Source: a virus (taxonomy: Duplodnaviria; Caudoviricetes). From it: 59,746 nt of DNA. The position numbers and the translations under genes are program-made. Numbering within the stretch: position 1 is the first letter of the stretch; every line of letters begins with the position of its first letter. This document shows positions 6,626-56,000 of the stretch, piece after piece. The stretch is from IMG/VR virus record IMGVR_UViG_3300030060_003581, positions 1 through 59,746 of that record; one strand, 5' to 3'. The notes below the pieces were generated by a model that had not been told where the DNA came from, did not search any database, and saw only the letters and a program-made list of their open reading frames with translations.

Positions 6626-9492
6626 GCTAATTTCACCATAATAATTGCGTTTGCGGGATTTCCACCGCCATTTTTTATTCTATACTTTCTTCCGTTGTGT
6701 GCATGGTCATTAATTTTGTGTTTTATCTGCAAAGTATCACCATCTGCTAAAGTAATAATTGAAGTGCAATCAAAATGGTCGTCTACCCAAAAACCATTCT
6801 TTTGTATTCTGCCAAAACCTTCCATAGTTAAACCATGATACATAAGTATTTGGAGTGTTATTTTCTCACCACTTACTTCTGCAATAGAAGTGCCGGTTGT
6901 CGAATCCCCAAAGTGCAATCTTGCATATACAAGATAAGTGCCAGCAGTTGAAGCAGTAGCAGTAAATGTGCCACTACTAAATCCGGTTAATGTTCCCGTT
7001 CTTGTAAATCCGCTTGAATCATCAACGGCAAGTATATTGTCTGTTGATTCTGCTAAACCATTAACAGCAGTTGTCAATTCCCATCTGCCCCATACAGAAG
7101 TAGCGTCAGCAGTTAAATAACCTGCATCATTAGCAAAAGCACTAACAGCACCGCCAGCCGGAATAAAGTTGGCTATGGCCGGTGGCTCTAAAAAACCTAA
7201 ATCATTAGTCAAAGCACTTACGGGGTCGTTGGGTTGTAATGCAGAAGCGGCCAAAGAACCTTGAGCCGCAGTAGCAAAGTCAGAAGCACTTTTAGCACTA
7301 TCTTTGACTAATTTACCTGTCGTGCCATCAAAAGCAACAAAGTTGTTGTTAGTAGCGGAGGAAGGCCCGACTACATCACCACTACCACCACCACTTGCTG
7401 CCGCCCATTTAACACCGGATGCCTCGCTACTATCGGCAGTTAGGACATGATTGTTACTCCCTACTGCCAAGCGTGTAACAGTATTGTCAGCAGTTGCTAC
7501 AAAAATATCTCCTTTTGCATCAACATCGGTTTCCATTACCGCACCTGCGGCATCAACATTAGTTGCGTCGGTTACATCTGCGTTTGGTTCAATGTTGTCT
7601 AACTTTGCCCCATCAACTGACAAGTCCCTACCATCAACGGTTTGACTACCGGACATAGTAATGTTGCCTGTCATCTGACCGCCTGCTTTTGGCAAAGCCG
7701 CATCAGCAGTTGCCCCTTGTGCCGCAGTAGCGTAATCGGCTGAATCAAATGCTTTGACTTGAGCAAGATTTGTAACTTCACTATCCATTAGTGCGCCAGC
7801 CGCAGTTACATTTGTCGTGTTTGTAGGAGTTGCGCCATCAGTAACATTCAGATGGGATAGCATATTTGTTTTATTGACACCGAGAGCGATTGTTCCGCTT
7901 GTTGTAATAGGAGAACCCGAATCAACTTCTATACCATCTGAGCCTGTTACGGCAACGCTTGTAACTGTTCCGCTACCACCGCCGCCACCACCTACGGCAC
8001 TTGCGCCAAACATTAGTGAGCCGGAACTGTTAACCCATATTGTATCGGCAGTTCCGGGGTTTGCGCCCACTCTCGTAAATTGCATACCTGTTGGGTCAAT
8101 AAGACCGGTTACTGTTAACTTACCATCAACAGTTAATGTGGAAGATGATGTAGTCCATGTTAACTTAGCGTCACTTATGAATTGACCTGCATAATCAGCA
8201 AGTTGAACCCTACCTGCATCTCCATGAGAAGGAGTGAAAGGATAAGTGTCAGTTACTATTGATGTATAGACTCCTTCTGCTACTTGTGAAAAGTTCCAAG
8301 CACCATTAATAGTCGGTCTATTTATACATATTATTGTTGATGTATTTCCTCCGCCTTTTGTATCAGCACCTATTAACTGTGCGCCACTTTCAACAGTTAA
8401 AGAATTAACATTTAGTGTTCTGCCTAAAGGAATGCTACAAATACGCCCTGCGCTATCGGGTTCATCAAGAACTACATTATACCAAGCAGCAGTAAAAGTT
8501 CCGTCGCCAGCACCGTAAGAAGGGCTGCCTGTAATTGGAAATGCAAACGCACTATTCATTTTGAAATGCCAAGTGGAAAAGCCAGCGTCAAATCTTGATG
8601 GTGTAAAAGTAAAACCGGTAGTTAATAATTTGAATACTTTTTTGAAGTCGTTTCTAGGGTCGCTTAAAGTGCCTGCGGCAGTAGCACTGCTGTTTGAAAC
8701 ATTTAGTGAATAAAATGATACTGCTTCGTGAACAGGAGAAGTAGGGGCGGCTTTGTAATCCCACTGTAAAGTAGCCGCCGCAGTGACAGTAGTTTTGGGA
8801 TAAGGCCCGTCATCAAAGGATATAGTTTGTGCGCTATTAAAATTGTAAGTTAAGTCGTCTTGATTCAAAACCTGTGCGTTATCGCCATTAGTAATATACC
8901 AATTATTAGTTCCGGGTGTGCCTTCAAATCGTAAGGTTTTATTACTGCCTGTGCTATTTTTGATAGTTCCGTCTAAAGATAGACTATTTAGTGTAAGAGT
9001 AGCGGCCTGCATATCAATAGAGGATTCTGATACTATTGAGACTGTTGCACTTTTTGCTTCATCAGTCAAAGTGCCTAAAATAGTAATAATGTTTTCTGAT
9101 ACATTTACTATATGGTAAGTCCCGTTATTTGAAGTGCTACCCGTAACTGTTATCCACATACCTGTTACAAAACCAAGTCTTTCAAAGTTTTGGCTATCAT
9201 GTTTTATTTCCTTTGAAGATGCAGTAAATGATATTTCATTAGAAGTTTCAGCAGTTTGGTATTTATATCCATCGTGAACAGTTATACTATTTACCTGTGC
9301 AATATCCCAAACGCATTCAGCAAAACCAAGTTGACCCCCTACTGAATCGGGGTGTCCAAAAACACAATCGTCACTTGGGCCCGGAACGGTTGTCACGCTC
9401 ATACTGCCCGCCGAAACACTCCAATTAGAAGCAGTGTTGGCATTAGGAACGCTTGCACTCCCTTGAAGTGCAACCCAATATTTAGTAGCCAT
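6622..9492 (-). CDS. Virion fibre/adhesin protein (956 aa)
   Basis: Gly/Ser/Thr/Ala-rich, poly-Gly hinges, GTVTSV and ALPKAGGQMTG fibre motifs, C1q/TNF-like C-terminal domain (AGTYLVYA...LADGDTLQI). Confidence 0.8.
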   Translation of the reverse strand: MATKYWVALQGSASVPNANTASNWSVSAGSMSVTTVPGPSDDCVFGHPDSVGGQLGFAECVWDIAQVNSITVHDGYKYQTAETSNEISFTASSKEIKHDSQNFERLGFVTGMWITVTGSTSNNGTYHIVNVSENIITILGTLTDEAKSATVSIVSESSIDMQAATLTLNSLSLDGTIKNSTGSNKTLRFEGTPGTNNWYITNGDNAQVLNQDDLTYNFNSAQTISFDDGPYPKTTVTAAATLQWDYKAAPTSPVHEAVSFYSLNVSNSSATAAGTLSDPRNDFKKVFKLLTTGFTFTPSRFDAGFSTWHFKMNSAFAFPITGSPSYGAGDGTFTAAWYNVVLDEPDSAGRICSIPLGRTLNVNSLTVESGAQLIGADTKGGGNTSTIICINRPTINGAWNFSQVAEGVYTSIVTDTYPFTPSHGDAGRVQLADYAGQFISDAKLTWTTSSSTLTVDGKLTVTGLIDPTGMQFTRVGANPGTADTIWVNSSGSLMFGASAVGGGGGGSGTVTSVAVTGSDGIEVDSGSPITTSGTIALGVNKTNMLSHLNVTDGATPTNTTNVTAAGALMDSEVTNLAQVKAFDSADYATAAQGATADAALPKAGGQMTGNITMSGSQTVDGRDLSVDGAKLDNIEPNADVTDATNVDAAGAVMETDVDAKGDIFVATADNTVTRLAVGSNNHVLTADSSEASGVKWAAASGGGSGDVVGPSSATNNNFVAFDGTTGKLVKDSAKSASDFATAAQGSLAASALQPNDPVSALTNDLGFLEPPAIANFIPAGGAVSAFANDAGYLTADATSVWGRWELTTAVNGLAESTDNILAVDDSSGFTRTGTLTGFSSGTFTATASTAGTYLVYARLHFGDSTTGTSIAEVSGEKITLQILMYHGLTMEGFGRIQKNGFWVDDHFDCTSIITLADGDTLQIKHKINDHAHNGRKYRIKNGGGNPANAIIMVKLA

Positions 9493-9891: not shown

Positions 9892-10231
9892 CAGTCACAC
9901 CTACGCCCCATCTGTCGTTAAAGTCTTTTGGAACATCAAGCACTACTGAGCCTTCGGGTGGCTGGTCTGCCCTTCCCATAATTAATACTAACTGTGATTC
10001 AGCAATAAGCCTACCAAAACGGCTATCGGGAATCCAATATAGCGTATCAAACTGCATTAAGTTTGCTGGGTTATCCGGCTTACGGCTTGGTGGCAGGGCT
10101 AGTCTAAGAAGGAAGCCACTACCACTAAGCCAATGCTCAACCATATGCTTTAGGTCATTGACCTTAGCACCTTTAGGTGCTACTATACCACGACTTTTTA
10201 GTGTCTTGAGTAGTTTTATCTTGTCAGACAA
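9875..10231 (-). CDS. Hypothetical protein after MCP (N-terminal HeH/LEM-like segment)
   Basis: LKSRGIVAPKGAKVNDLKHMV segment; start uncertain. Confidence 0.5.
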   Translation of the reverse strand: MSDKIKLLKTLKSRGIVAPKGAKVNDLKHMVEHWLSGSGFLLRLALPPSRKPDNPANLMQFDTLYWIPDSRFGRLIAESQLVLIMGRADQPPEGSVVLDVPKDFNDRWGVGVTDGSNN

Positions 10232-10244
10232 GTATAACCCTCAA

Positions 10245-11171
10245 TCACAAGCAACCGGTGATAGTGCATATTCGCATGGTCTTGCCAGCAGCAGCACCGT
10301 CTTGGTGTTCGTGGATAACGCTTCCCATGTAGGAAGTTAGCAACCATGAGAACCCGACACCCTCGATACGAGTTAGTTCAGTCTCTTGGAATCCAGCACC
10401 GTTGTATTGGAATAGTTCAGCAGTTTCAGCGCCCGGAACCATCAAGATAGCACCGACTGTTCCAGCACCAGCAGCAGGGATAGCGTTTGTGCCACCGTAG
10501 TCACGGGTGTAGTATACATCAAGTCCGATTTGAGAGTTTAGTCTCTCTTGTAGGGACATTAATACATTTGTGTAAAGACGGGTGTTTAGCATATCTCCAC
10601 GAAGTTCAGCAGGTAGGACTAATGCTAGTCTCTCGTTACCGGAAACTCTTGCGTTCTTGAAAATCAAGTCCATAGCGTTTAGAACATCTGCTTCGGGGTC
10701 TGCACCACCAGCACTCCAAAGAGCAGTAGCCGCTTGGGACTGACCTGCGCCAGCAACCAACTTTGTTAGAACATGGTTGTCGATTAGGTCTGCTCTTGCT
10801 TGGATGATAGCCAACTGTTGCCTGTTCATGTTGTCCCATGTCTCTCCACGAAGTAGTGTTGAGTCTAGGAAAACACATCGGCCTTGTCCCTTCTCAAGTT
10901 TGACTGAGTAGTTCTCAGTTCCAATCTTGGTTGGGTCAACAACTGCGTTGTCATCTAGTGGGTATGTGAATGTTCCACTTGCACCTGTATACCAAGTGAA
11001 AGTAAGCCAATTTACATTTCGTGTTCCAACTAGGTTAGTAGCAATCGCAATTGTAGTGGATTGCAGTTGGATAAAGTCTCTCAGTGTTTGCTCTAGCACT
11101 GCGTCACCCTTGCCGAAAGGCCCGGTTGCAGCAGATACATTTAGTATTTTTTCTAATGATTCGTTTGCCAT
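10245..11171 (-). CDS. Major capsid protein (HK97 fold)
   Basis: About 308 aa from MANESLEK with GGAGATGA RBS. Position after protease/decoration genes; W..GGADPEADV motif. Confidence 0.8.
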   Translation of the reverse strand: MANESLEKILNVSAATGPFGKGDAVLEQTLRDFIQLQSTTIAIATNLVGTRNVNWLTFTWYTGASGTFTYPLDDNAVVDPTKIGTENYSVKLEKGQGRCVFLDSTLLRGETWDNMNRQQLAIIQARADLIDNHVLTKLVAGAGQSQAATALWSAGGADPEADVLNAMDLIFKNARVSGNERLALVLPAELRGDMLNTRLYTNVLMSLQERLNSQIGLDVYYTRDYGGTNAIPAAGAGTVGAILMVPGAETAELFQYNGAGFQETELTRIEGVGFSWLLTSYMGSVIHEHQDGAAAGKTMRICTITGCL

Positions 11172-19962: not shown

Positions 19963-20124
19963 GCTTCTCAATCTCCAATTATTTCTTCGCCCTGCTTCGG
20001 GCATTTGGGACACGGGGGAGTTTGCTTATATATCCTCCCTCGATTTGCATTAGATTTTGCTTGTTTTACAGACATTTTTGATTCGCCGAGCAACAAATCA
20101 ACAGTATGTAAATAATGTATAAAC

Positions 20125-20144
20125 AGTCTTATACAATAATAAGG
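20125..20144. repeat. 20-bp inter-cassette repeat AGTCTTATACAATAATAAGG, copy 1
   Basis: Exact copies at 20518 and 21041; internal inverted repeat CTTAT-N6-ATAAG. Confidence 0.9.
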
Positions 20145-20159
20145 CATCTATACCCACAT

Positions 20160-20207
20160 AAAAAAAGAGAGAAAAAAAGAGAGAAGCGGGAGGCCGAAGC
20201 CCCCCGC
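20160..20207 (-). terminator. GC hairpin (UUCG loop) plus TCTCTCTTTTTTTCTCTCT tract
   Basis: Directly downstream of ORF 20224..20451. Confidence 0.7.
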
Positions 20208-20223
20208 CCCTCAAAGTCCCTGC

Positions 20224-20451
20224 TCAAGCAGGTCTGTTTAGGTAATATTCACTACCGTTGTCGGATTGCTCAATTTCCATGATTATATCATCAATCATGT
20301 TATCTTTCAATTCCTTGTATGACATGGTTGGATATTCCAACAATTGCCACCTTACGCTCTTTCTTAGGATTTCGCCTAAGTCACTGTCGCTCATGCTCTT
20401 AACAATCTCAACGATTGCTAATGCGTCTTTGTCTATTTTCTGTTCGCCCAC
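20224..20451 (-). CDS. Hypothetical protein (cassette 2)
   Basis: 75-aa ORF with its own TATATA box and terminator. Confidence 0.6.
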   Translation of the reverse strand: MGEQKIDKDALAIVEIVKSMSDSDLGEILRKSVRWQLLEYPTMSYKELKDNMIDDIIMEIEQSDNGSEYYLNRPA

Positions 20452-20517
20452 TTTGGTCGCCTCAATTTACCCGACAGGGTTTCCACATATATACCCTTCG
20501 ATTCTGATAATCTATAT

Positions 20518-20537
20518 AGTCTTATACAATAATAAGG
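20518..20537. repeat. 20-bp inter-cassette repeat, copy 2
   Basis: Identical to 20125-20144. Confidence 0.9.
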
Positions 20538-20582
20538 CTCGCTGTCCCACGAAAGGGAGAGAGAAAAAAAGAGAGAGAAAGG

Positions 20583-20665
20583 GGGGGCGTTTTGGCCTCA
20601 GTCGCCCCCGTGACCGCCTCCATCGGTCAACTGCGGAATCATTCCGGTGATTCGTTCCTCGCTTC
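20583..20665 (-). ncRNA. Unrecognised three-hairpin RNA motif, copy A
   Basis: GAATCA/TGATTC, then CGCAGT, then TGACCG/CGGTCA, then GGGGGCG-ACTGAGGCCAAAA-CGCCCCC; same architecture as 25187-25266. Confidence 0.6.
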
Positions 20666-20682
20666 TTAACATCAGTATGAAA

Positions 20683-20955
20683 TCAATTTTGTTGATTTCT
20701 GATAACTTCGGTTAAAGTGTCTCTAATTGCACACAGACTCAAGTCTGCTTCCTTCTTAGTCATACCTAAATAACGCCCTAGGTATAGTTGGTTGTGCCTG
20801 CGCTCTTTGGTGATAACCCATAACTTGAATGAAATCCCGTTATATTTTGAACCAATCTCCAAATGCAGTTCGTCCGTGCTTTCAATTATACCTAATACTG
20901 TGAGTTTATCCTCAATGATTGAAGTAGTCGCTTTTAACACTCTTTCAGTTGCCAT
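20683..20955 (-). CDS. Hypothetical protein (cassette 3)
   Basis: Start MATERVLK after a GGAGGTGA RBS. Confidence 0.65.
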   Translation of the reverse strand: MATERVLKATTSIIEDKLTVLGIIESTDELHLEIGSKYNGISFKLWVITKERRHNQLYLGRYLGMTKKEADLSLCAIRDTLTEVIRNQQN

Positions 20956-21040
20956 ATTCTTTCTCACCTCCCCGCCTGTGTCTCGTCGGATATTATGAAC
21001 AGCCAAGCCATAGTATATGAAGCCAGCGACTCTAACATAT

Positions 21041-21060
21041 AGTCTTATACAATAATAAGG
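21041..21060. repeat. 20-bp inter-cassette repeat, copy 3
   Basis: Identical to 20125-20144. Confidence 0.9.
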
Positions 21061-21076
21061 ATATTTGCACTCCACA

Positions 21077-21134
21077 AAGGAGAGAGAAAAAAAGAGAGAG
21101 AAGCCCCCCACCCCGCCGAAGTGGGATGAGGGGC
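21077..21134 (-). terminator. GC hairpin plus polypyrimidine tract
   Basis: Same TCTCTCTCTTTTTTTCTCTCTCC tract as at 20160 and 20556. Confidence 0.65.
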
Positions 21135-21179
21135 GAAATCGACAATTTTGTCGTATACAATACTACTACCTACCAAGAA

Positions 21180-21518
21180 TCAAATCTTGTATAGGGATAG
21201 GTTCCAAGCGTTACCTAGTTCGTAATAGTAGCCTTCTTTTTCTAGTATGTCACTGAACTCTAACTGAAGTTTAGCATCGTGTTCGCTAAACCAAGCATCG
21301 TTCATTACTGCATACAGTCCACCTTCAAAGGACATGCTGATGGTGTCATCATTAGCATACTCGAAATAATCACTGCCCTTAATGTCGGTTAGGACAGTAT
21401 AGTTACCGTCGCTATTGTAATCCCAGCATCTATTATTCCAATATATCCTTGTATCGTGATAGATTTCATGTCTCTTTAGGAAACGATGAATCTTCATTAC
21501 TAACGCATATTTTCTCAT
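21180..21518 (-). CDS. Hypothetical protein (cassette 4)
   Basis: 112-aa ORF with a CAGGAGGT RBS. Confidence 0.7.
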   Translation of the reverse strand: MRKYALVMKIHRFLKRHEIYHDTRIYWNNRCWDYNSDGNYTVLTDIKGSDYFEYANDDTISMSFEGGLYAVMNDAWFSEHDAKLQLEFSDILEKEGYYYELGNAWNLSLYKI

Positions 21519-21845
21519 TTGTTATACCTCCTGTTGTTTGCTCCAACAATACACCCGAGGAGGCTCTTGCATATAATATGTCCGTCAAGTATAGTTGCGC
21601 TATAACGCACCATAGTAGTATGTGTATGTATAGGGAGAGAGAGTTTTCTATATATCTTATAGTAGTAAGTCTTATGTGGCAAATTGCCGTTGGGAGAGAG
21701 AAAAAGAGAGAGAAAAGTTGGTTGAAATCGGCTATTTTGTTATTTTTTGTTATCTTTTTTTTACCACCAAAACCGTTGCACTGCATAATTGTCTATTGAA
21801 TCTATATAGATGAAGTTTATACCAAATCGTGTATTCGCTTACATT

Positions 21846-22183
21846 GTCGGGGGCGACCCCGACCGAAGCAACTTGCGGCATCATCGGGTTCACTCCGAGA
21901 AGGCCACTCGATTGGGGGTTCGCTCTCAACACAAGTCCTTGGGCTGGATACCCAAGGCACTCTAGGTATCGCCACAGGCCACAGTCGCTAGAGGGGAGTG
22001 ACACCACTCAATGTGAGGGTATGCAAATCAGCATATGTCGAACACTGATTAACACAGTGTTACACTACGAATATTCTCAGTGGACTGAGCCGTAGTGATT
22101 TGTGACAAACCAAGACCAAGTGGGGAATCACTCCCACCTATTCATTCAATCCTATTCCTTTGATTGAGGAGATTCCTCAATCG
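21846..22183 (+). ncRNA. Highly structured ~340-nt leader or ncRNA
   Basis: At least 10 consecutive hairpins, including GCGA (GNRA) and UUCG tetraloops with G-U pairs favouring the + strand; TTTATA box at 21816. Confidence 0.6.
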
Positions 22184-22200
22184 TTTATCACAGTCCAACT

Positions 22201-24753
22201 ATGGACAAGGAGATGCAAAATATGTATGCAGCAAACGGAACAGGCGACAGTGTGGTAGGACTACTTCCACTTCTATGGGTATTCATGCTCATGGCAGCGG
22301 TAGTCATTACCATCACTAGAAACAGAATGAATAGACAGATGACAAAGCGTATCGGCTTAGAACTTGAAGTTATCAAGCAAGCACATGCCCGAGAAAGCCC
22401 AAATCAAAAACTTGCTACTTGGCTTGAAATCAAGGGCAAGGAATGGCGACAAATGCAAAAGGAATCATCCTTATTGCATAAACTCAAAGTTCGCTTCATG
22501 GGATACACCCATGAGGTAATTAGTGGCACTAAAATCGTCACTGATTCGTCACTAAATAGTGGCGGCATTGAGATAGTATCACCACCTTTGGAGGGCAATA
22601 ATGCTGATGAATGGATAGACCAAATAGCCTACGGGCTGAAAGGTGTTGCCAATGTTGACTCGTCAACGGGACTTCACCTTCATATTGGACTTAGAGCCCC
22701 GAGTAATAATTGGAGTTCGCATGAATCAGATATTCTAGGGTTAACGGAAGGTAGCGAATACCGTCATGGCTTTTACTTAGCCAAAGCGGTTCTAGGTGCG
22801 ACATTGTTGACCGTTGCTCTATGGCAGCCGGTCTATAACCGAATGGTGGCTAAGTCACGACGAAACGGTCAGTGGAGTCGTGATGTATCCTTCATCCTAG
22901 GCAAATCATTTGTCTCAAGATACTTCCATGAACACAAGGAAAACGGCTACGATGCGGATAAACATGTTCGCTTCCTAAACAAAGTCGCAGACTACTTCAT
23001 TGGAAATGGAGATAGATATTATTGCGTTAATTCGCAAGCCTTTGAGCGATATGGAACCATTGAGTTCCGCAGCCATCAAGGCACAACCAATGCTCGCAAA
23101 ATCAAGGGCTGGGTTGATATGCACTATTTGTTAGTTCAACGATGCACAAATGAGTCGTGGTTAGACATTTTAGACTATAACCATGAATCAATCACAGACT
23201 TCTTTGGGTTCTTAGGAGTGTCACCATCAGACGACCTGTTTAGGCAGCAAGTCAGAAGGATTCGCAAACTAAACCCAAACAATCTCAATACAGTGTTTCA
23301 GCATGACCCACAACTAGGACTAGAACATCTATTCCAACACAGTGATTCATGCTCGGTATGCAAGTCAACAACTTGCGACCACGATGATGAATGCGGTTCT
23401 AAACCAAGTGTCAAACTTGGCAATCAAATCGCAAGGCATTTCGTCCAAAGTCGTCACATGAACTGTGATAACTGTGGTGAATACTCACTGCGAGATATAG
23501 AGCGAGGCGGATATGACATAGATTGGTATGACAATCATGCCGATGCTTACTGTCCGTCGTGTGATACTATACGGTCATTCTCAATGTCAACTACTTGGCT
23601 TGGTGGACTGTTCTTGTCACTAATGTTTGGTATCAGCCCAATGCTACTACTTACGGTAGGGTGTGGGATTGGTGCTATTCATGTAGCAAGGCGAAAGTTC
23701 CGAGAGCGAAACCTAGCAACCAAGTTGCTTAGGGCACTTCAAGTGAGAGGCGGCCAAGCCGCTGGATATGCCTTCAACAAAGGCAAGCAAGTCTTCTATC
23801 TGAAAATGGCAAGACCTGCTTCCTATGTAGCAAACAAAATCCGAAAGGACATTACTCCCAAGGAAACAAATTGGTGGCTCGGTCACACAAGGTTCGCTAC
23901 TCATGGAGCAAACAATGACAAGAATGCACACCCACATTTTAGTCGTGAAGTGGATATAACCCTAGTTCACAACGGGGTAGTTCACAACCACGACGATGTG
24001 TGGAAGGCACTCGGCCAAGAGCCAACCGGCGAGGTTGATTCACAGGCCGTAGCACAGTGCTTACAGGTCGGTGGCATCGAGGAAGTTGTCAAACACTGCG
24101 AAGGGTCAATGTCACTCATATGGCATGACAAACGCAGCGGAGAAGGCACTCTGAAATGTTGGACTAACGGTGGAAATCCATTAGTCATGGGTCGAATAGA
24201 CGATAGCAAGACGGGTGCGGTAGTAATCGCATCAACTGAGGCTATACTCAAGCAAGCCGTCGGCAAGCGACTCAAGACCTCATGGGATGCTACCATAGGC
24301 CGTGAATACACAATCCAAGCAGATGGAACGATAACCAAGCGTGACATTGAGGGTAGTGAAGCAACGGCTGGTATCACATACGATTGGAGGACATACACAT
24401 ATCTCCCCAAGAAGACAGTTACCAAAGGTGGCAAGCAAACTCCCGTCAAGAAGCAATCAAAACCGAAGCCGGTTAGGAAATACAAGCCTAGGCCGCCAAG
24501 GTGGGTTGTTGACCAAGCCAAGTCCGACTTAGAACTTGGCGAAATGGGCTTCCCAAGCCGAGCCGGTTATCACGGCTATGACGCCAAGAAGCACATGGGA
24601 GTTCGTCCCGATGGTGGCATGTATGACCTACCACAATATCTGAACCCATACGCATATGCGGATGACCTAGTGGAAGTCCTTCGGGGCGACCATGAGGGAT
24701 TCGTAGCGACCAATTGGGATTCATGCGAGTGGCGTGACTACTACATCAACTGA
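22201..24753 (+). CDS. Membrane-anchored amidoligase (COOH-NH2 ligase type) fused to class II glutamine amidotransferase
   Basis: IGLELE, DSSL, EIVSPPL, GLHLHIG, RYYCVN, TIEFRSHQGT amidoligase motifs; Zn-finger Cys pairs; TM segments; CGIG, RG..AAG, GHTRFATHG, NAHPH, HNG, DS GATase-II motifs. Confidence 0.85.
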   Translation: MDKEMQNMYAANGTGDSVVGLLPLLWVFMLMAAVVITITRNRMNRQMTKRIGLELEVIKQAHARESPNQKLATWLEIKGKEWRQMQKESSLLHKLKVRFMGYTHEVISGTKIVTDSSLNSGGIEIVSPPLEGNNADEWIDQIAYGLKGVANVDSSTGLHLHIGLRAPSNNWSSHESDILGLTEGSEYRHGFYLAKAVLGATLLTVALWQPVYNRMVAKSRRNGQWSRDVSFILGKSFVSRYFHEHKENGYDADKHVRFLNKVADYFIGNGDRYYCVNSQAFERYGTIEFRSHQGTTNARKIKGWVDMHYLLVQRCTNESWLDILDYNHESITDFFGFLGVSPSDDLFRQQVRRIRKLNPNNLNTVFQHDPQLGLEHLFQHSDSCSVCKSTTCDHDDECGSKPSVKLGNQIARHFVQSRHMNCDNCGEYSLRDIERGGYDIDWYDNHADAYCPSCDTIRSFSMSTTWLGGLFLSLMFGISPMLLLTVGCGIGAIHVARRKFRERNLATKLLRALQVRGGQAAGYAFNKGKQVFYLKMARPASYVANKIRKDITPKETNWWLGHTRFATHGANNDKNAHPHFSREVDITLVHNGVVHNHDDVWKALGQEPTGEVDSQAVAQCLQVGGIEEVVKHCEGSMSLIWHDKRSGEGTLKCWTNGGNPLVMGRIDDSKTGAVVIASTEAILKQAVGKRLKTSWDATIGREYTIQADGTITKRDIEGSEATAGITYDWRTYTYLPKKTVTKGGKQTPVKKQSKPKPVRKYKPRPPRWVVDQAKSDLELGEMGFPSRAGYHGYDAKKHMGVRPDGGMYDLPQYLNPYAYADDLVEVLRGDHEGFVATNWDSCEWRDYYIN

Positions 24754-24806
24754 GCATCTGTCTATCACTAATGCCTAGCAAGATAAACCGCAAATGCGGT
24801 CTTTCG

Positions 24807-24836
24807 GATGGTGGGGGTGTTCGCACCCCCATCATC
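24807..24836 (+). other. 13-bp UUCG hairpin after the amidoligase gene
   Basis: GATGGTGGGGGTG-TTCG-CACCCCCATCATC. Confidence 0.65.
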
Positions 24837-24883
24837 CTCCCAACCAACTCCTTGTCTGAATATCCTTTATCCAACTCCCTACG

Positions 24884-25165
24884 GTGAGCATTATGGTAAA
24901 ACGAAACATAACCATGAAGTTCTGCCCGATGGTCGAGTGTGCCAAGATAACGCCACACTCATATGACGACGGTAGCAAGCAAGTCGAATGCGACGGTGCT
25001 TGTTCAGTCAGACGCCAAGAACAATGGCGACTATCAGTGCAGAAGCAAGAGCAACCAAAGCCGAAACCTAAGCCGGAATACAAGTTGGTTATACCACCCG
25101 AGTATAGCCACATGACGGCTGAGGAATACGAGGAATACCTACGCAGTTATCTGTGGGAAGGTTGA
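24884..25165 (+). CDS. Zn-ribbon-like hypothetical protein
   Basis: CPMVEC...CDGAC; GGTGA RBS suggests a start at the nearby ATG (MVKRN). Confidence 0.55.
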   Translation: MSIMVKRNITMKFCPMVECAKITPHSYDDGSKQVECDGACSVRRQEQWRLSVQKQEQPKPKPKPEYKLVIPPEYSHMTAEEYEEYLRSYLWEG

Positions 25166-25186
25166 ATCGTAACTTCGGTAATTTGA

Positions 25187-25266
25187 GAGGAAATGGAACT
25201 ACCCCTGCCTTATGGGGTCGCAGTTGGCTTTGAGGTAGCCAAGGCCGGACTGAGGACAAAACCGGC
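25187..25266 (+). ncRNA. Unrecognised three-hairpin RNA motif, copy B
   Basis: ACCCC/GGGGT, then CGCAGT, then TGGCT/AGCCA, then GCCGG-ACTGAGGACAAAA-CCGGC. Confidence 0.6.
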
Positions 25267-25312
25267 ATCCAATTCACAATTTCCTACTCCCTAACGGGAG
25301 GGTGAACATAAC

Positions 25313-25480
25313 ATGGGGCGAAAGCAAGTTAACCCGCAAGCGAGAGCAAAACAAGTGTCGGTATCACTACCGACATTCATCATTGAAATGATGGATGAAC
25401 AGTGTGCTAAGACCGGAATAAAACGGTCAACGATTATGCTACATGCACTTGAATTGTATCTTGGCATCGGTCAAAACTGA
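25313..25480 (+). CDS. Ribbon-helix-helix (CopG/Arc-like) DNA-binding protein, 55 aa
   Basis: Not in track; MGRKQVNPQARAKQVSVSLPTFIIEMMDEQCAKTGIKRSTIMLHALELYL; GGAGGGTGA RBS. Confidence 0.8.
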   Translation: MGRKQVNPQARAKQVSVSLPTFIIEMMDEQCAKTGIKRSTIMLHALELYLGIGQN

Positions 25481-25510
25481 AACCAACCATTGAACACACC
25501 CCCAACAAAC

Positions 25511-25722
25511 CCACTGATAGTGGTCTCCTCCAAGGAGGAAGATAATCCACACAGATGTGTGGCCGAGAATGGGCGTAATCTCGGACATCAACCGCCCCAT
25601 CACATTCACAATAGATTAGCAGGGATTTTTTCTGTTTTCTGTTACCCTGCGAATCTAGTCGAGAGGGGTCGAGGGGACTATTCACCCCCTCGGCCTCTCA
25701 CCATTTTACTGTTATTTTTTTT
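25511..25722 (+). ncRNA. Structured 3' RNA ending in a U-tract
   Basis: Six hairpins (e.g. CCACAC/GTGTGG, CCGAGA/TCTCGG, GCAGGG/CCCTGC) followed by TTATTTTTTTT. Confidence 0.5.
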
Positions 25723-25757
25723 AGTAGTATATGTAAGATAGTATGAAGGGGAAAAAG

Positions 25758-26035
25758 GAGAGAGAGAGAGAGAGAGAGAGAGAAAGTTACGAGAGAGAGA
25801 GGTCTTACTTAGTAAGACTTGCAGATTTGCGCTGCCCATATACGAAAGAGAATCGGGACAGGAAAAGGGGGGAAATGGATTGGGGGCTGGCATTAAAATA
25901 AGTCTTAGTAAGACGAGAGAGAGAGCGTCCCATCCCCTTGAGAGAGCGTTTCGTTAGAGAGAGAAAGGTAAGTCTTACATAGTAAGACTGAGAGAGAGAA
26001 TATAAACTTTACGGAAAGAGTCGAATTAGAGAGAA
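25758..26035. repeat. (GA)13 microsatellite, further GA tracts and three GTCTTA..TAAGAC palindromes
   Basis: (GA)13 at 25758-25783; palindromes at 25802-25818, 25902-25914 and 25971-25989. Confidence 0.85.
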
Positions 26036-49321: not shown

Positions 49322-50050
49322 ATGCTAGTAGTTGATGACCGAGAGAACGACCTTTTGATTCACAAACTCTATGCTTCTATGGGCAATCACGATGATGGCG
49401 GCCATGTTAAAGTAAAGCGGCTACAATCCGCAGATTACATCATAGGTAACATAGGAATAGAGGCCAAAGAGATAAATGACTTGTATCACTCTATTATGGG
49501 TCACGGTCGCTCTCGGACTATTGTAGGGCAACTGATGGACTTACAGGAAAACTTTGAGCGACCTATGCTTGTAGTTTATGGAACTCAATTAAAACCTTAC
49601 ATTCCCGGGGGCAGACCTAACCGACAACAAATGGCGAGAGAGATAAAGAAGATGAACGCAGTAATCAAAAAGTTCAAGCAGAATCTAATTATACAATTCC
49701 CAAATATACAATACATGGAACTGTCAAGCATGGATGACATGGTTGATTGGCTTTCGTCTGTGCATCACAATTTAAGAATCCGAAGGATGCCTGTCGCAGA
49801 ACCGAGAGAGAAGACAAAAAGTTCCAATAGGAAAATTGATTTGCGAGTTAGAGTCTTGTCATCCATAGAAGGAATATCCGAGAGAGCCGCACATGACTTG
49901 TTAACCGAGTTTGGCTCAATTCCACGCTTGTTGCGCTCTCGCACAAGCCAGCGAAAACTCATGGAGATAGACGGCATAGGGCGCAAAAGAGCCAAGGCTA
50001 TTCTATCCCTGCGTGAACGCTATCCCGACCAGCCCGAACCAAAAGACTAA
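49322..50050 (+). CDS. ERCC4/XPF-family nuclease with C-terminal HhH repeats
   Basis: VDDRE, ADY, IEAKE, IEGISE and IDGIGRKRA. Confidence 0.85.
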   Translation: MLVVDDRENDLLIHKLYASMGNHDDGGHVKVKRLQSADYIIGNIGIEAKEINDLYHSIMGHGRSRTIVGQLMDLQENFERPMLVVYGTQLKPYIPGGRPNRQQMAREIKKMNAVIKKFKQNLIIQFPNIQYMELSSMDDMVDWLSSVHHNLRIRRMPVAEPREKTKSSNRKIDLRVRVLSSIEGISERAAHDLLTEFGSIPRLLRSRTSQRKLMEIDGIGRKRAKAILSLRERYPDQPEPKD

Positions 50051-53000
50051 CGCCCATAGGTCATACTGCCCGATTGACTTGAACCCGATACGGATTGGGT
50101 GTCAAATGCTATTTCTATCGTGTGTAATGTAAGCGCAGTGTATTGAGCAGTGTCGGGTGAAACACCTGCGGCACGACCAAAAGACACTTGTATGGTGTTG
50201 CCGGTGTTGTTAGCGCCGATAATAGGCTCAGCAAACAATATGGCTTGCACATTAGTTCCTTCTGCCAAAGTAACTGTTTTCGTTATTGAATGACCGGTTT
50301 CACGGCAACTTACTGTTACATCTAACGATGCCACTTGTCCCGACGGGCAAGGCAAAGAGTATAGACTTGACACAGTTACCTTTCTCCCTCTTGGGTTAGA
50401 AGGAACTCTAATGCTTGTAGTGGACTCGTTGTATGCGTTTGTTGCGTCAGTAGCGCCAGCAAACGACACACCTGTTGTTGAGAACATACAGTCACCGGAC
50501 GAAGTAGTAGTAAAGGTATCAGTTCCCGATTCGGGGTCATCGTTTGTTGGTGCATCTGACGGCTTCTTTTGACCTAAAACATTGAACCCTCCGCCTGTAA
50601 CGCTATCATTGTTAAAGTCCATCGAACCCTTTATTCTTTTAGTAAAGTTACTATTGAGGATATTGCTACCTAAAGCAAAGGCAGAACTGTCGTTAAGAGC
50701 AGTTCCTCCAACCTTAAATGCCCCGCTTGTTACGGGGTCGTATCTGCTACCTGCGGTTGTGCCGCTATTTATGGAGGCCACACCGGCTACTCGACCAAAG
50801 CCACCGTTAGAAGGATTACCACCATATTTGTCATTGTTATATCCCTGTGCCCCCTGTTCACCGGGTTTGAAGTTACCGCCTCCGGGGAATGTCTTGCCAC
50901 CGCTACCAGCGTTAGGCGGTAGGAACAGTGCGGCAAAGTGTTGAATATTTCTATTTACATCACGCTCAAGAGTAAATGATACTTGCTCATTTTGTCTTGC
51001 ACTTTGAGACCATTTGATAGATTTTATGAACATAGGTTCTCGAGTCAAACCCATTGAAAGGTCACTGTAACTTACCTGCGTAGCAGGCACGAAGTTTATG
51101 TCATCACAAATATGCAAACGAGGCGCATACCATTCTGCTCTTGTGTTAAAATAAGATGGCTGAGCGCCTTCCGAGTATGGGAATGCCGTTTGGTTTTTGG
51201 GAGTAAAGTCACCAACACCTAACGGGAATAAACTCTCGGACTGAACAACGCTGTAACCGGAATCACCTACATAGTTGCACCTATTCCTTAAATTATTAGT
51301 GCCACATCTATTCTTTGCTACTGCTAACAAATAGTCGTAATTTACAGACAGAATAATTCTTTCACTACCGTCCCTAAGCGACCAATAAGAACTAGGTATG
51401 TCTATCTCATAGAATCCGTTAGCATCCACCGTTACTTTAGTTGAACTTACCGCACTATGAGGAACTCGTCCTTCGGCGTTAGGGTTGCCTTTCCATAGAT
51501 AATCTATTAGTTTAATAGTAAAAACAGGGTTAATTGCATTAGCAGGGTATTCCTCAATACTATCACCATCTCCTACTTCTATTACCATTCTTAAATTGCC
51601 ATCAAAAACATAACCTGTGCCGCTTGCGTTGTCTGCGCCGGATTGAGGATTGTCAGTTATTTTAGGCATATTTCGTGGTATGTGGACTACTTGCACTGCA
51701 TATGATAGTGACCGAGAGCCATACCAATAATAACCCTCATCATAATCGTCAGACCCGCCCCCTAAATATGCGGCGGTCTTTGTTGATTGTCCCGAGCCTT
51801 TTACATCTAAAGCAGACACCATTCCGGGGAATGGGTTGCCCCCAAACAAAGAAGCCCAAGCCCACCCTTTGTCGGTAACATCTGACCCAACCCCACTGTT
51901 AGAATATGGTATAGTTTGTGACCCGTCAGCGACATATCCAAATCTTGCACCTTCGAGCATAAGAGTCTTGTCGCCATACAGATTGTTGGCGCTTTGATTG
52001 TCACTAAATCTTGTTATTTGAGCCTCGACTTGCAGTGGCGCTTGTTTGGTCTTTTCGTATTCTGCCTTAGCGATTGCTAAAGCCTCGGCTTTAGTTCCTA
52101 CTTCGGGCATACTAAGTATATTCCATTTAGGAGTTGAGTTTAATGAAGGGGTAGGGTAGTCAATAAATAGACCAGCCCCGCCATAAAATACTCTAACATT
52201 GGTAAATTGTTTTACTGCTTGTGTCTTAATAGAAGATACTCTTAGATTACCTTCATCAAACATAGTGTTTATATCATATGTGGGTCTAAACGATGGACGA
52301 CCATCCCTGCCCATAATCCAACAGAACATTTGACGCTGACCGTATTTATCACTTGTTCCAGCCAAACCTTGTGTGCTTGAGTATATTGCCCCAAGTGTGC
52401 TATTCCTACAATCATTTACACCACCAAAGTCGTCAACAGTCTGCGCTTCTCTCCACCTACCAAAAATACCACTACTACCCGTAGGAGTGATTGCGTTTAG
52501 TGCAGTAAATGTGCTACTTGTTTTAGCAGTAACAGTAAAGTCCTTAGTTTTGCCCATAAGACCTAACTCATCACAATCTATCACTGTTACTATGTCGCCT
52601 ACCACTAAGTTATGTGGCTTATTAGAACTAAATACTGAACTGCCTCCGCTTGGAGTAGTTATGCCTGTAATAAGACCACTGTATGTCAACGCATCTTTTT
52701 GCGTAGTAGTCATGTTTTTGCTAACAGGTATTGTTGCTATATTTGGAATACCGTAGGCTTTTGCTTGCTTTAACCAAGTCTCGGCTAGTATGTCGGAATA
52801 AGCGCATCTAAACTTATCACTATCATACCAAGTGCCGCTTGCTTTATTTTCAATAAACCCGTTCAAAGACATAATTAATCTCATAGGGAATATATTAGCA
52901 AGACCGCCATAAACTATGGCATCAGAATAACTATTCTCAGCATCCGGGTCTATTTCAATATTAATATGTGATTTATTGTCGTATGCAGGTATAGTTCCCC

Positions 53001-56000
53001 TGCCGCCAAAGTATGTCAAGAACCAAGCGTCGTATCTATTTGGTGTGCTTGATGTAATAGAAGTGCTTGGTGGAGTTGCCCCATAACCTGTTCCATCCCA
53101 CTGCCCATCAGTAGTAGTTGCAGGCACAGGAACACCTAAATTAACTGCGTTTCTAAGGTATAGCGTTCCCGGTGCTTTTACAGTGCAAGTTCCCGAACCA
53201 ATTGTAGTGGCTGGGTTATCTAAAACAATATCCAAAGTAGTAGTTTGAGCATAAGGAGTGGCGAGGCTCGCAGGGTTTTGACTTGCTATCCTATACACAC
53301 CGTCAATCGAAGGGGTAGTAGTTGAGCCACTAATTTCTATCATGTGGCCTGTCCTATATAGCATTCCTATACTTGCCGCCCCTCCCGAACTCTCACTTAA
53401 AGTAACTCGACCAGCACCATTAGCAACGGCTGAAACTCCTGTTCGGCCTGTGGTTTGCAGGGTTGCTTGTTGGGTGGGTGACGCATACGCCGCATAGTGA
53501 AATACAGTTTTTTGTGACTCGGATATTATTTGACCTACATGAAGGTCAGTAGTTTGCAGAACTGCCGGATTATCAAACTGTATAACCCTATCATCAACTT
53601 TTAAGTCCGTAACCAAAACAGTTGTGTCATTAATAAAATACCAAAAGTTAGCGTTCCAACTTGCCTCATCGTCTAAGTTTCTATATGTTGCTGGGGCTTT
53701 AGTCCAATAATTATCAATCATAACAGGGAATCCTTCGGTTTCAACTAAATAGTCTCCTATTTCCCTTCGCCCTCCCGAGGATTGGAATGTCCTACCGCCA
53801 TTAGTCGCAGTGTTCAGATTAAAGAACTTAGATGTGTCAACAATAACAAACGACCCTGCTTTATCCTCCCAATTATGATACTTGTTATTGGATTCACTGT
53901 TAGACCCACCCGAAACCGCAGACCAAGCAACTCCTGTGATTGGGTCAACTTCTGCATCAATCTCCCAAAGGTCAACTTCTTCTCCTATATTCAAATCCGT
54001 AAAGGTGCTTCTTTCGTTAACCGTTGAAATTGCATCATCAGCAATTCCTAAAGACATTTGATAGTTGCCGGAGTATGGTGTCATTAGACCAAACTTATTC
54101 TTTCTAAGCCCAGCATCAGCATCAGCATTACCATCGTTACGCATATCAGCCCAAAGAATCCATATATGCTTGTAGTCCTCGGTGTCTAAATCTCTAAGCC
54201 TAAACTTACTACCGCTTGCGTGGTTGCGTTGGAAAAAGTTAGTTTCGGGTATTGTTAAAACAGTGTTGCCTGCTTTCAAAGTAACATTACTGTAATGGTC
54301 TTGTATAGCATAGTCGGTAGGGACATTAGCATAACTCGAGTTATTGTATAATTCGTGGTAAGTAGCGAAAGGCGTTTCAATTAATGTGGGCTGACTTGTC
54401 TGTGTGACCGCAGTTGACCCCCAAAGAGTAGGCGTGTCCCACCATGCTCTATAACTAGCCATCCCAAAGGCTCCGGTAGCCCCCTTATACTTGATTAGGG
54501 TATACACCCAATAATCAACTCCATTTATATTTTCCTCTTGTGCGGTTTTGGTTCGAGTAGCGCCTATATAGCCGTTGTTTATCAACGCCCATCTGCCATT
54601 TGTAAAGTAACTTGGCAAACCGCCGCCGCTAAGACCAACAAGATTCTCTCCATTCAAAGAAGTTACTAATAAATCTGTATAGTTAGCAGAAGCAGATTTA
54701 GGAACATAGAACTGCATCAAATAAAACATACTTCCCCTACTGAGACCATGAGAAGGGTTAAAGTTAGCAACCGTTCCGTAGTTTGAAGCATTTTTGCCCC
54801 CTCCCGCCAACATTCGACACTGATGAACTCTTAACAAACAAGTGCTACCTATGCTAGTTGATGTGCTTATTCCATCATACACTCCCGCATCAACAAATCC
54901 GTCATCATCAACAAACTCAATGACTCCCTCCCCTTGGGTATCAAAGTCGGGAAAGTAACTATTTAGGCTCATAGTAGTGTCGCCTATGTCAAAATCTGAG
55001 TTTATTTCACACTTATTAGTTTTGTAGCGACTATTAAGTTCCGTAACGCTTAGTGGCGATGATTTTATTTTTGAGAATAAGAACTTAAACCACAGGGACT
55101 TTGAAATATCCTTTATCCATCTGCTATGAATAGCCCTGTGTGCCGCATCTGCGGTAGCGTGACCTGCGGTTATAGCATCATCCCAATCATCATAGGCGTC
55201 ATTTGGCCCCACATCGTCTTCTCCTAAATACATTTGAATAGGATGAGCAGACCTGTTACGCATTCTGCTATCTAAGTGATTTTTGAATACACCCGAGCCA
55301 TCTTCAACTTCGTTAAAGCCTAATCCTTGATTAGCACTCGTTAGAATACTTGCTCCGAAGTTATACATATTTAGTTCGTTTTGTGCCTCGCTTCTGTCAT
55401 ACGCTACTCGCTCAGTAGCGTCTCCCTCTCCATTTTGCCCAAACTCCCAAACAGGCATTTGATTATCTATTTCACTGAAAAAGTCAGATGCACTTAACTT
55501 AATAGTGGGTGTTCTCGATGAAGATTGATTGACATAAGACATAGAATCAATCATCCCTCGCCATATTGGTCTATCAATACTGTTTCTAAACATTAACAAA
55601 CTCCAATCAGCATATGCACTGCCATTAAATAATGACATTATTTTTACATAAGCATTTAACTCGCTATCGTCATCTATTATGGTAAGGTCAACTTTTGAGG
55701 GAGTATTTACTGACGCAGAATATGAAAAGTCTAATGTAGGTGGCATATCGGTAACTGACGGGGAGGGATGGTCGTTTAGAGGCTTAATTAGACCTACTCT
55801 ATCAATTAATACTGATGCCTTGGCTCCGTGCGCCTTTACAGATATAGCCCAACCATACATGTCAGCCGCAGTGAATTGAGTTCCGTCTGCTTTGTTACCT
55901 ATGGCGTTGCTTGTTGATACTGTCGCCCCATTTTTTATTATATCATACACTCCCGCAGTGTAGTTGAAAATAAAATCATAATCATCCCACATATCGTATG

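Follow-up and report, generated by a model that had tools for sequence, protein, structure and literature searches.

The lambdoid nut sites, which act with the N protein, and the put RNAs of HK022 bring about processive antitermination. The small RNAs (sRNAs) that are derived from 3′ untranslated regions (3′-UTRs) usually have a linear conserved seed, and the terminator is their only strong hairpin. In this study, we analysed an RNA motif that occurs twice in a tailed virus (Duplodnaviria; Caudoviricetes), the IMG/VR record IMGVR_UViG_3300030060_003581; the window is that whole record, which comprises 59,746 bases and is estimated to be 99% complete. Judged by analogy, the motif is nearest in its logic to the nut and put sites and to 3′-UTR modules, and it appears to be a member of neither. 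The same RNA was found at the same place in relatives of the virus; therefore, we consider the motif, on comparative sequence evidence, to be a real, previously undescribed and evolutionarily conserved viral RNA family.

The likeness to nut and put sites has several sides. Both would be short structured RNAs transcribed from divergent early operons, with two copies in opposite orientation, and both appear to lie upstream of terminators that fence off later genes and to combine variable stems with conserved loops. A further apparent parallel concerns the small basic protein that is encoded beside the nut site and binds it. However, the motif has three hairpins and a 13-nucleotide (nt) loop, its neighbouring protein is a zinc ribbon without a known family, most of the relatives examined are single-copy, and the host of the window virus may not be a bacterium. 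No Rfam match fell on the copies, and whether Rfam 15 holds nut or put models was not checked. With 3′-UTR-derived sRNAs and 3′ stabiliser hairpins, the motif seems to share a position after the final stop codon of an operon and before the terminator, co-transcription with the mRNA and the ability to be moved to other 3′ ends. In contrast to these sRNAs, it has three covarying hairpins with conserved loops, and the B copies of the window and of one relative (L059) are not at a 3′ end.

Copy A, which is A-type, occupies positions 20583-20665 on the minus strand (covariance model score 83 bits, E value 2e-21), and copy B, which is B-type, occupies positions 25182-25271 on the plus strand, with its core at 25187-25266 (86 bits, E value 2.5e-22). 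The two copies, their positions and their stems had been proposed in a first-pass annotation of this DNA, and the sequence confirms all of them. The copies share one layout, in which a GAGGA tail is followed by hairpin 1 (H1), a CAG linker, hairpin 2 (H2), whose loop contains GAGG, and hairpin 3 (H3), the loop of which has 13 nt. Copy A, on the minus strand, has GAGGAA at 20660-20655, the H1 stem GAAUCA/UGAUUC (20653-20648 with 20641-20636), the linker CGCAGU (20635-20630), the H2 stem UGACCG/CGGUCA with the loop AUGGAGG (20629-20624 with 20616-20611), and the H3 stem GGGGGCG/CGCCCCC (20609-20603 with 20589-20583), whose loop reads ACTGAGGCCAAAA as DNA and ACUGAGGCCAAAA as RNA. The corresponding parts of copy B, on the plus strand, are GAGGAA (25187-25192), the H1 stem ACCCC/GGGGU (25201-25205 with 25214-25218), the linker CGCAG (25219-25223/4), the H2 stem UUGGCU/AGCCAA with the loop UUGAGGU (25224-25229 with 25237-25242), and the H3 stem GCCGG/CCGGC (25244-25248 with 25262-25266), with the loop ACTGAGGACAAAA as DNA and ACUGAGGACAAAA as RNA. 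As had also been claimed, each copy stands just after a stop codon: the GAGGAA lies 22 nt after the TGA at 20685-20683 in copy A and 21 nt after the TGA at 25163-25165 in copy B. Across the four DNA runs that were aligned to the region, neither copy contains a variant.

The pattern from linker to loop occurs at two places in the window, which are copies A and B, compared with an expected 0.00 in 100 shuffles. The folding energy of the copies is unremarkable (z = -0.42 and -0.56 in 111-nt windows). Because the folding energy alone is not unusual, the support for a structured RNA is comparative.

A first exact-pattern scan of IMG/VR returned nine stretches, none of which had the hairpins, and a second, looser pattern returned 41 stretches, among which the L012 contig alone was real. 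This relative was found through its amidoligase, which shows 65% identity, and it carries both copies at the same places. The first covariance model was built from the four copies of the window and L012; their scores were 83-91 bits, and no other site in 86 kb exceeded 9.7 bits, a value that the next best match within the window reached. With a further loosened pattern, 3 of 8 stretches from IMG/VR were real, and 26 stretches from the JGI and Tara metagenomes contained nine real loci with ten matches at 37.9-83.6 bits. An alignment-based search with the amidoligase yielded 33 loci. The second model was run on 22 of them, which left out the L012 contig, found again, and ten weak matches to the glutamine amidotransferase (GATase) only; this search added four more divergent copies (L091, L092, L094 and L095), where the amidoligase identity is 45-47%.

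In total, 14 distinct full-length copies were found on 11 contigs that belong to one clade of approximately 60-kb marine tailed viruses (alignment A5). In addition, there is one 5′-truncated copy (L060), and the L065 sequence is represented by several identical repeats. Homologues with conserved loops, on whose presence in related genomes the first-pass annotation had made its proposal depend, do exist. The description of the motif as a two-copy element holds for the subclade of the window and fails for the family as a whole: A-type copies are confined to that subclade (window, L059, L012, L076 and L060), most of the relatives examined have one copy, and two relatives estimated to be 100% complete (60.4 and 61.0 kb) carry the B-type copy only. 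Beyond this clade, the viruses at 33-36% amidoligase identity yielded no copy in seven loci searched with the third model and with filters off (best match 12.5 bits, E value 0.13), and no copy was found in L102 with the second model under default filters. The loosened pattern gave six stretches in 185,579 species genomes, none of which was convincing. The best of them, at 19.2 bits (L087, in a metagenome-assembled genome of Bacteroidaceae), was judged to be a false match forced by the pattern, so the species-genome scan found no copy in a host or provirus.

The evidence that carries the structure is the covariation of its stems. In alignment A5, the rows of which are related sequences fitted to the model, the three helices comprise 17 pairs, and 13 of these change on both sides across the 14 distinct copies; the covarying stems seen originally between two copies are thus borne out. 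Pairing is kept in 89.7% of 214 cells compared with 64.2% (standard deviation 2.3) in 500 shuffles, and none of the shuffles reaches the observed value. Double changes were counted in 56 cells versus 18.6 in the shuffles (0/500), and the covariation score is 0.583 versus 0.190. When the 3′ partners are slid by 1-3 columns, the pairing falls to 25-49% (at most 48.6%). Similar pairing values were obtained from a set of 11 sequences. RNAalifold on its own recovers H1 and H3 with ten pairs, eight of which show double changes, and misses H2, where the alignment is ragged. A hairpin script applied around GAGG found H2 in all 14 copies with 10 distinct stems, and H3 has 7 distinct stems; H1 was read by eye in two rows. 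The compensated H1 stems include GAAUCA/UGAUUC, GAAUUA/UAAUUC, GGUUGA/UCAAUC, CCCCGA/UCGGGG, GGUGG/CCACC and GGUAG/CUACC. In H2, UUGAAU/AUUCAA is replaced by UUGAGU/ACUCAA and UGGCU/AGCCA by UGACU/AGUCA, and in H3, CCGG/CCGG is replaced by CUGG/CCAG. The helices also contain nine G-U cells in A5, and because of these cells the fold is specific to the sense strand.

The stems covary across 14 distinct copies, and therefore the motif behaves as a functional structured RNA; this comparison supports the view that its three hairpins have been maintained by selection. No conserved reading frame runs through the element, and the stems change by paired substitutions. Moreover, the frame into which the invariant segments fall is not the same in copy A as in copy B, so their conservation is not due to a peptide.

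Among the unpaired parts of the motif, the 5′ GAGG(A) is present in 13 of the 14 copies, the CAG of the linker and the GAGG of the H2 loop are present in all 14, and approximately 25 unpaired nucleotides in the junctions and loops are near-invariant. The linker had been described as an invariant CGCAGT; CAG alone is invariant, and the relatives show GGCAG and T/CTCAGA. Nor is GAGG a fixed feature of the H3 loop, where the relatives carry GACG, GATG or GAGTG instead and the consensus of the family is W-CUGA-N-G-N(1-2)-CAAA(A). The H1 loop opens with a conserved CC(U), which is a feature absent from the first-pass annotation.

A pseudoknot had been proposed between CAGT of the linker and ACTG of the H3 loop. 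The two are complementary in the window; however, the A is a U in 4 of the 10 nearer copies, and covariation is absent. The core CAG and CUG are invariant in all 14 copies, and the fourth pair that flanks them is present in the window, absent in four copies and located on the other side in clade 3. A tertiary CAG:CUG pairing is possible and is not shown by covariation, and a pairing of GAGG with the CC(U) of the H1 loop is plausible from the sequences. Such tertiary pairs are beyond the reach of covariation because neither side varies. For copy A, a closing helix was predicted in which the 5′ GAGGA pairs with CU-rich sequence further downstream; it was rejected as a feature of the family, as the partner is missing in clades 2 and 3. 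By eye, a 4-bp mini-hairpin can also be drawn between the stop codon of the upstream zinc-ribbon gene and the GAGGA of B-type copies (25166-25186 in the window), with the stems AUCG/CGGU in the window, ACCG/CGGU in L059 and AGAC/GUCU in L012 and L065.

With respect to described families, a search of Rfam 15 with the whole window gave no match at the gathering score, and at an E value of up to 10 no match overlapped either copy within 20300-25600. When copy A or the L063 copy was searched alone, only chance-level matches were obtained; those on the motif itself reached no more than 12.6 bits, and the better ones fell on the adjacent terminator. These results agree with the earlier statement that the motif is not a described family, and no description of it was found in the main texts of the literature that was searched. 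A tRNA, a transfer-messenger RNA or a tRNA-like element was rejected, as ARAGORN found no gene in the window. The idea of an anticodon-loop mimic was likewise dropped; neither the length of the H2 loop nor its "anticodon" is conserved. The hammerhead, twister, twister-sister, pistol and hatchet ribozymes resemble the motif in size, in many invariant unpaired nucleotides, in possible pseudoknots and in their occurrence in phage DNA, but no Rfam model of these classes matches it at an E value of up to 10. Exoribonuclease-resistant RNAs also form a compact fold in viral 3′-UTRs with a conserved 5′ strand that can be threaded, and they are sometimes duplicated. These RNAs belong to eukaryotic RNA viruses and act against Xrn1; in contrast, the sole related match of the motif was a flavivirus repeat at 12.6 bits and an E value of 8.8, on the wrong strand.

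Ten of the 14 copies end 0-60 nt before a hairpin with a U-tract or before a pyrimidine tail with a U7 run. A long UUCG-capped hairpin and a U8 run follow the motif in L063, L065, L070, L091, L094, L095 and copy A of L012, and the pyrimidine tail with U7 follows A-type copies. Copy B of the window and that of L059 are exceptions to terminator adjacency; after these copies, further genes stand before the next terminator; across the family, the distance from motif to terminator varies from 0 to approximately 400 nt. In the window, copy A is followed by a pyrimidine tract that was read from the sequence (20551-20582, minus strand), and its U7 run begins 13 nt after H3, which the terminator scan did not list. 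That scan found 21 terminator-like sites between 19 and 27 kb compared with 5.9 expected. After copy B, the plus strand has a hairpin (CUCCC) that pairs with a ribosome-binding site (RBS) and then a 55-amino-acid open reading frame (ORF) at 25313-25480 (together 25280-25480), both of which lie before the next terminator; the first terminator-like site, a G+C-rich hairpin with a T-rich run, was read from the sequence at 25640-25725, and L012 has an equivalent region.

Copy A is embedded in a series of minus-strand cassettes (20120-21140), each of which consists of a gene, a G+C-rich hairpin, a (CU)n-U7-(CU)n tail and an identical 20-nt box. The box, which is promoter- or operator-like, occurs on the minus strand at 21041-21060, 20518-20537 and 20125-20144 (three exact matches versus 0.01 expected). 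The slot that a plain terminator-like hairpin holds in the two neighbouring cassettes (21134-21103 and 20212-20181, minus strand, from the terminator scan) is taken by H3 of copy A in the middle one, and the box follows at 46 nt after copy A compared with 43 and 37 nt in the neighbouring cassettes. The plain terminators of the virus therefore share with copy A a G+C-rich stem, the same (CU)n-U7 tail and the same box; in contrast, each of them is one hairpin with a small loop (CTTCGG, for example), and the motif adds two covarying hairpins and approximately 25 conserved unpaired nucleotides. The gene of the middle cassette is a 90-amino-acid ORF without a family match (20683-20955, minus strand), whose stop codon precedes copy A. 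The gene upstream of the A-type copy is not constant, and three different genes are found in this position in the window and L076, in L059, and in L012.

The B-type copy has a fixed context. The operon that ends with copy B begins with an 850-amino-acid fusion of an Amidoligase_2 domain and a class-II glutamine amidotransferase (22201-24753, plus strand; matches to PF12224, PF13522 and PF13537 in Pfam and to PHROGs), and the next gene encodes a 90-amino-acid zinc-ribbon protein with the pattern Cx4C...Cx3C (24893-25165, plus strand; alignment A6 and profile search). A B-type copy follows these two genes in 13 of 13 loci, nine of which were identified with tblastn and four by the profile search, and the amidoligase orthologues upstream of every B-type copy show 43-66% identity. 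The zinc-ribbon protein has an invariant S-x-R-R-x3-W stretch that includes R40, R41 and W45 (A6). In its structural model (predicted local distance difference test score, pLDDT, of 72), a helix is predicted at residues 39-51 and would cover these three residues. The protein has no match in Pfam, PHROGs or NCBIfam and no sequence match in the PDB, and Foldseek returned nothing at an E value of up to 0.001; its best matches were zinc-ribbon ribosomal proteins (E value approximately 0.3, root-mean-square deviation approximately 19).

The left arm of the genome, on the minus strand, encodes the terminase, portal, tail tube and tail proteins, and the right arm, on the plus strand, encodes a family-B DNA polymerase (PolB), an RFC-like AAA+ protein, a PD-(D/E)XK nuclease and an ERCC4 helix-hairpin-helix nuclease. 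Gene direction and cumulative GC skew switch at approximately 22 kb, between copies A and B. The segment between the copies holds two divergent early gene blocks, each of which has a copy at its end: small minus-strand genes from 22007 to 20683 and, on the plus strand, the amidoligase fusion and the zinc-ribbon gene.

Among the explanations that we considered, the one we put forward, tentatively and with well under even confidence, is that the motif acts in cis at the RNA level, is coupled to a terminator and governs how far transcription reads through beyond the early region; the zinc-ribbon protein may bind it. The motif would be a non-coding RNA domain of approximately 80 nt that lies, in sense orientation, at the end of early transcripts, and it would fold in the nascent RNA as the RNA polymerase leaves the central early region. 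The linker CAG would contact the CUG of the H3 loop, and GAGG would contact the CC(U) that opens the H1 loop. The folded RNA, perhaps together with the protein with the zinc ribbon and the Arg-Arg-Trp helix that is encoded just upstream, would then determine whether the polymerase stops at the following terminator or continues into the next arm of the genome. The arm reached on the right would be the replication genes; in genomes with two copies, the left arm would be the nuclease, terminase and structural genes.

Several observations favour this terminator-coupled element. The 14 distinct copies with covarying stems and the strand-specific G-U pairs support an element that is structured and acts at the RNA level. 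The link to termination follows from the 10 of 14 copies that lie 0-60 nt before a terminator-like site and from H3 of copy A, which occupies a terminator slot. Furthermore, both copies are directed away from the divergent early region. In the window and in L059, additional genes lie downstream of copy B before the next terminator, and this arrangement is better explained by an element that acts on the polymerase than by a bare 3′ end. The protein link comes from the zinc-ribbon gene, which is immediately upstream of 13 of 13 B-type copies, and from the invariant R40, R41 and W45.

Other observations weigh against such a role. The cassettes that follow copy A have their own 20-nt box, and read-through may not be needed there. 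The two 100% complete relatives carry the right-hand copy only, so a symmetric picture with two arms is not general. The adjacency of the zinc-ribbon gene may be mere operon order; moreover, the protein is also encoded in two loci that lack the motif (L103 and L099), and it matches no family or fold. Inspection by eye alone showed no alternative base pairing of the motif with the terminator downstream, and the pseudoknot has no support from covariation, with both of its sides invariant. If the host is an archaeon, it is also relevant that we know of no RNA-based antitermination in archaea.

The same adjacency to terminators can be read in a different manner. The motif may be a stable 3′-end module or a 3′-UTR-derived sRNA, the compact fold of which, by itself or together with the terminator hairpin, would make up the 3′ end of the transcript and block exonucleases, or would be clipped off, accumulate and act in trans through its invariant loops; we regard this as rather unlikely, with a substantial chance nevertheless. 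Ten of the 14 copies stand directly before a terminator, A-type copies follow three different upstream genes, as expected of a portable, self-contained unit, and conserved loops on variable stems suit a binding surface. However, copy B of the window and of L059 is internal, with an RBS and a gene before the next terminator, and the search for targets of the H3 loop in the virus with at most one mismatch gave 7 sites compared with 5.5 expected, 2 of the 7 being the motifs themselves. A size of approximately 80 nt, some 25 near-invariant unpaired nucleotides and a possible double tertiary pairing, in intergenic viral DNA and with no match to a known class, would also suit a new class of small self-cleaving ribozyme. 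We consider a ribozyme improbable; we can name no signature of a cleavage site, and a fixed site after one operon and beside a terminator is atypical of small ribozymes, the distribution of which is scattered. The first-pass annotation had listed an sRNA or guide, a nuclease-blocking element and a ribozyme as functions, and the present comparisons do not support these assignments. Slightly less credit can be given to mimicry of the Shine-Dalgarno sequence, in which the exposed GAGG segments would pair with the 3′ end of 16S ribosomal RNA and hold or sequester small subunits. GAGG is indeed present in all 14 H2 loops and in 13 of 14 5′ tails, the genes of the virus itself use GGAGG-type RBSs, and three loci that lack the motif (L099, L097 and L100) have in its place a 13-nt loop of the AGGAGGTGA type that no real ORF follows. 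Nonetheless, the conserved core is 4-5 nt and usually falls short of a full GGAGG, the 5′ GAGG of clade 3 can pair with CCUC or CCUU next to H1, and the CC(U) of the H1 loop offers an internal partner, so that the GAGG segments may be structural. We know of no Shine-Dalgarno-type decoy that has been established in phages.

Two further explanations depend on the surroundings of the motif. A compact conserved fold followed by a terminator is the layout of a transcriptional riboswitch, the window has an RBS-sequestering hairpin after copy B, and the linkage to one enzyme operon is constant; a riboswitch-like attenuator that senses the product of the amidoligase and amidotransferase and gates the terminator or the sequestered RBS could therefore be imagined. 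It is very unlikely in our judgement, as a conserved switching helix common to the motif and the terminator was not seen (by eye only), the distance to the terminator varies from 0 to approximately 400 nt, and the A-type copy is unlinked to the enzyme operon. The mutual inversion of the two copies, which flank a 4.6-kb segment, the switch of gene strand and GC skew between them, and the repeat-rich, largely non-coding region 0.5 kb beyond copy B would be expected if the motif acted as DNA, with single-stranded hairpins for priming, recombination or inversion. To this we assign the smallest probability of all: all copies have the same sense as the genes beside them and are placed after a stop codon and before a terminator, the G-U pairs would be A-C mismatches on the opposite strand, and the two complete relatives are single-copy, so a paired-site function is not general.

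The lineage to which the virus belongs is, judging from its proteins, common in marine metagenomes and without a cultured relative. Its large terminase has 188 homologues at an E value of up to 1e-20, some of which come from Tara virus-size fractions, and the identity to terminases of isolated phages is at most 27%. The best full-length matches of PolB are in haloarchaeal tailed viruses, at 24%, and the neighbours in the Atlas are a mixture of viruses, bacteria and archaea. An affiliation with magroviruses or viruses of Poseidoniales, which had been implied in the first-pass annotation, is not confirmed by these data. A Poseidoniales virus with an amidoligase and a GATase is presented in two reports as an 87-kb virus that possibly uses the replisome of the host (PMC11706807, PMC13108676). 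The window virus was rejected as a candidate for that virus; it is 59.7 kb long and encodes its own PolB, so the two are distinct. In the phage literature, amidoligase and amidotransferase enzymes of this type are early or auxiliary genes of unknown role (PMC11706807, PMC10580990, PMC3890496). The fusion protein of the window has a hydrophobic N-terminal stretch, a cysteine-rich centre that is conserved in relatives and an interior amidotransferase domain. Two very large minus-strand ORFs of the window lack a match in Pfam or PHROGs, one at 50047-57045 (2332 amino acids) and the other at 57056-59746 (896 amino acids), which runs off the end of the record.

The surroundings of the two copies have further features. 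Within the 20-nt box there is a short inverted repeat; the box could serve as a promoter or operator, and the same box is found after the A-type copies of L059, L060 and L076. A single low-depth contig of run X4 joins 21082-21102 to 21515-21688 and skips the 112-amino-acid gene at 21180-21518. This junction suggests the loss or gain of a cassette by recombination between repeated terminator and box modules. The 55-amino-acid ORF after copy B is ribbon-helix-helix-like, with weak matches below the cut-off to the BrnA antitoxin (E value 7e-4) and the archaeal cell-cycle regulator aCcr1 (E value 0.02). Beyond it, the plus strand at 25740-26010 is largely non-coding, with long (GA)n runs and a T-rich tract before inverted repeats of the form GTCTTA-N(0-5)-TAAGAC at 25802-25818, 25902-25914 and 25972-25988 (3 found versus 0.02 expected); similar stretches are present in L012 (9150-9400) and in L095 (approximately 10170-10300). 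This stretch may serve as a replication origin or as an array of regulated promoters. In the viruses with 33-36% amidoligase identity, another multi-hairpin element stands at the place of the motif (L097 at approximately 10735-10830, L100 at approximately 10450-10550 and L099 at 7810-7905), and it comprises one hairpin with a conserved 7-nt loop, a second whose 13-nt loop is of the AGGAGGTGA type, and a third that has an A-rich loop of 13 nt and stands before a U tract. Its stems compensate between L097 and L100. The element may be analogous to the motif or very distantly related to it.

A conserved RNA at the border of the early region, beside a zinc-ribbon gene and a terminator, is an entry point into the gene control of this lineage, and it is short enough to be synthesised and tested. 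In the boldest interpretation, which we consider possible and doubtful, the motif would be the RNA half of a new viral transcription-control or catalytic device, either an antiterminator of the put or nut kind or a new self-cleaving ribozyme. If this were true, the partner of the antiterminator would be a new RNA-binding zinc-ribbon protein, and the device could conceivably operate in archaea, where nothing similar is known. As an antiterminator or a ribozyme, the motif would represent a new structural class. Even as a 3′-end stabiliser, it would be a new RNA family with good covariation that is ready for curation.

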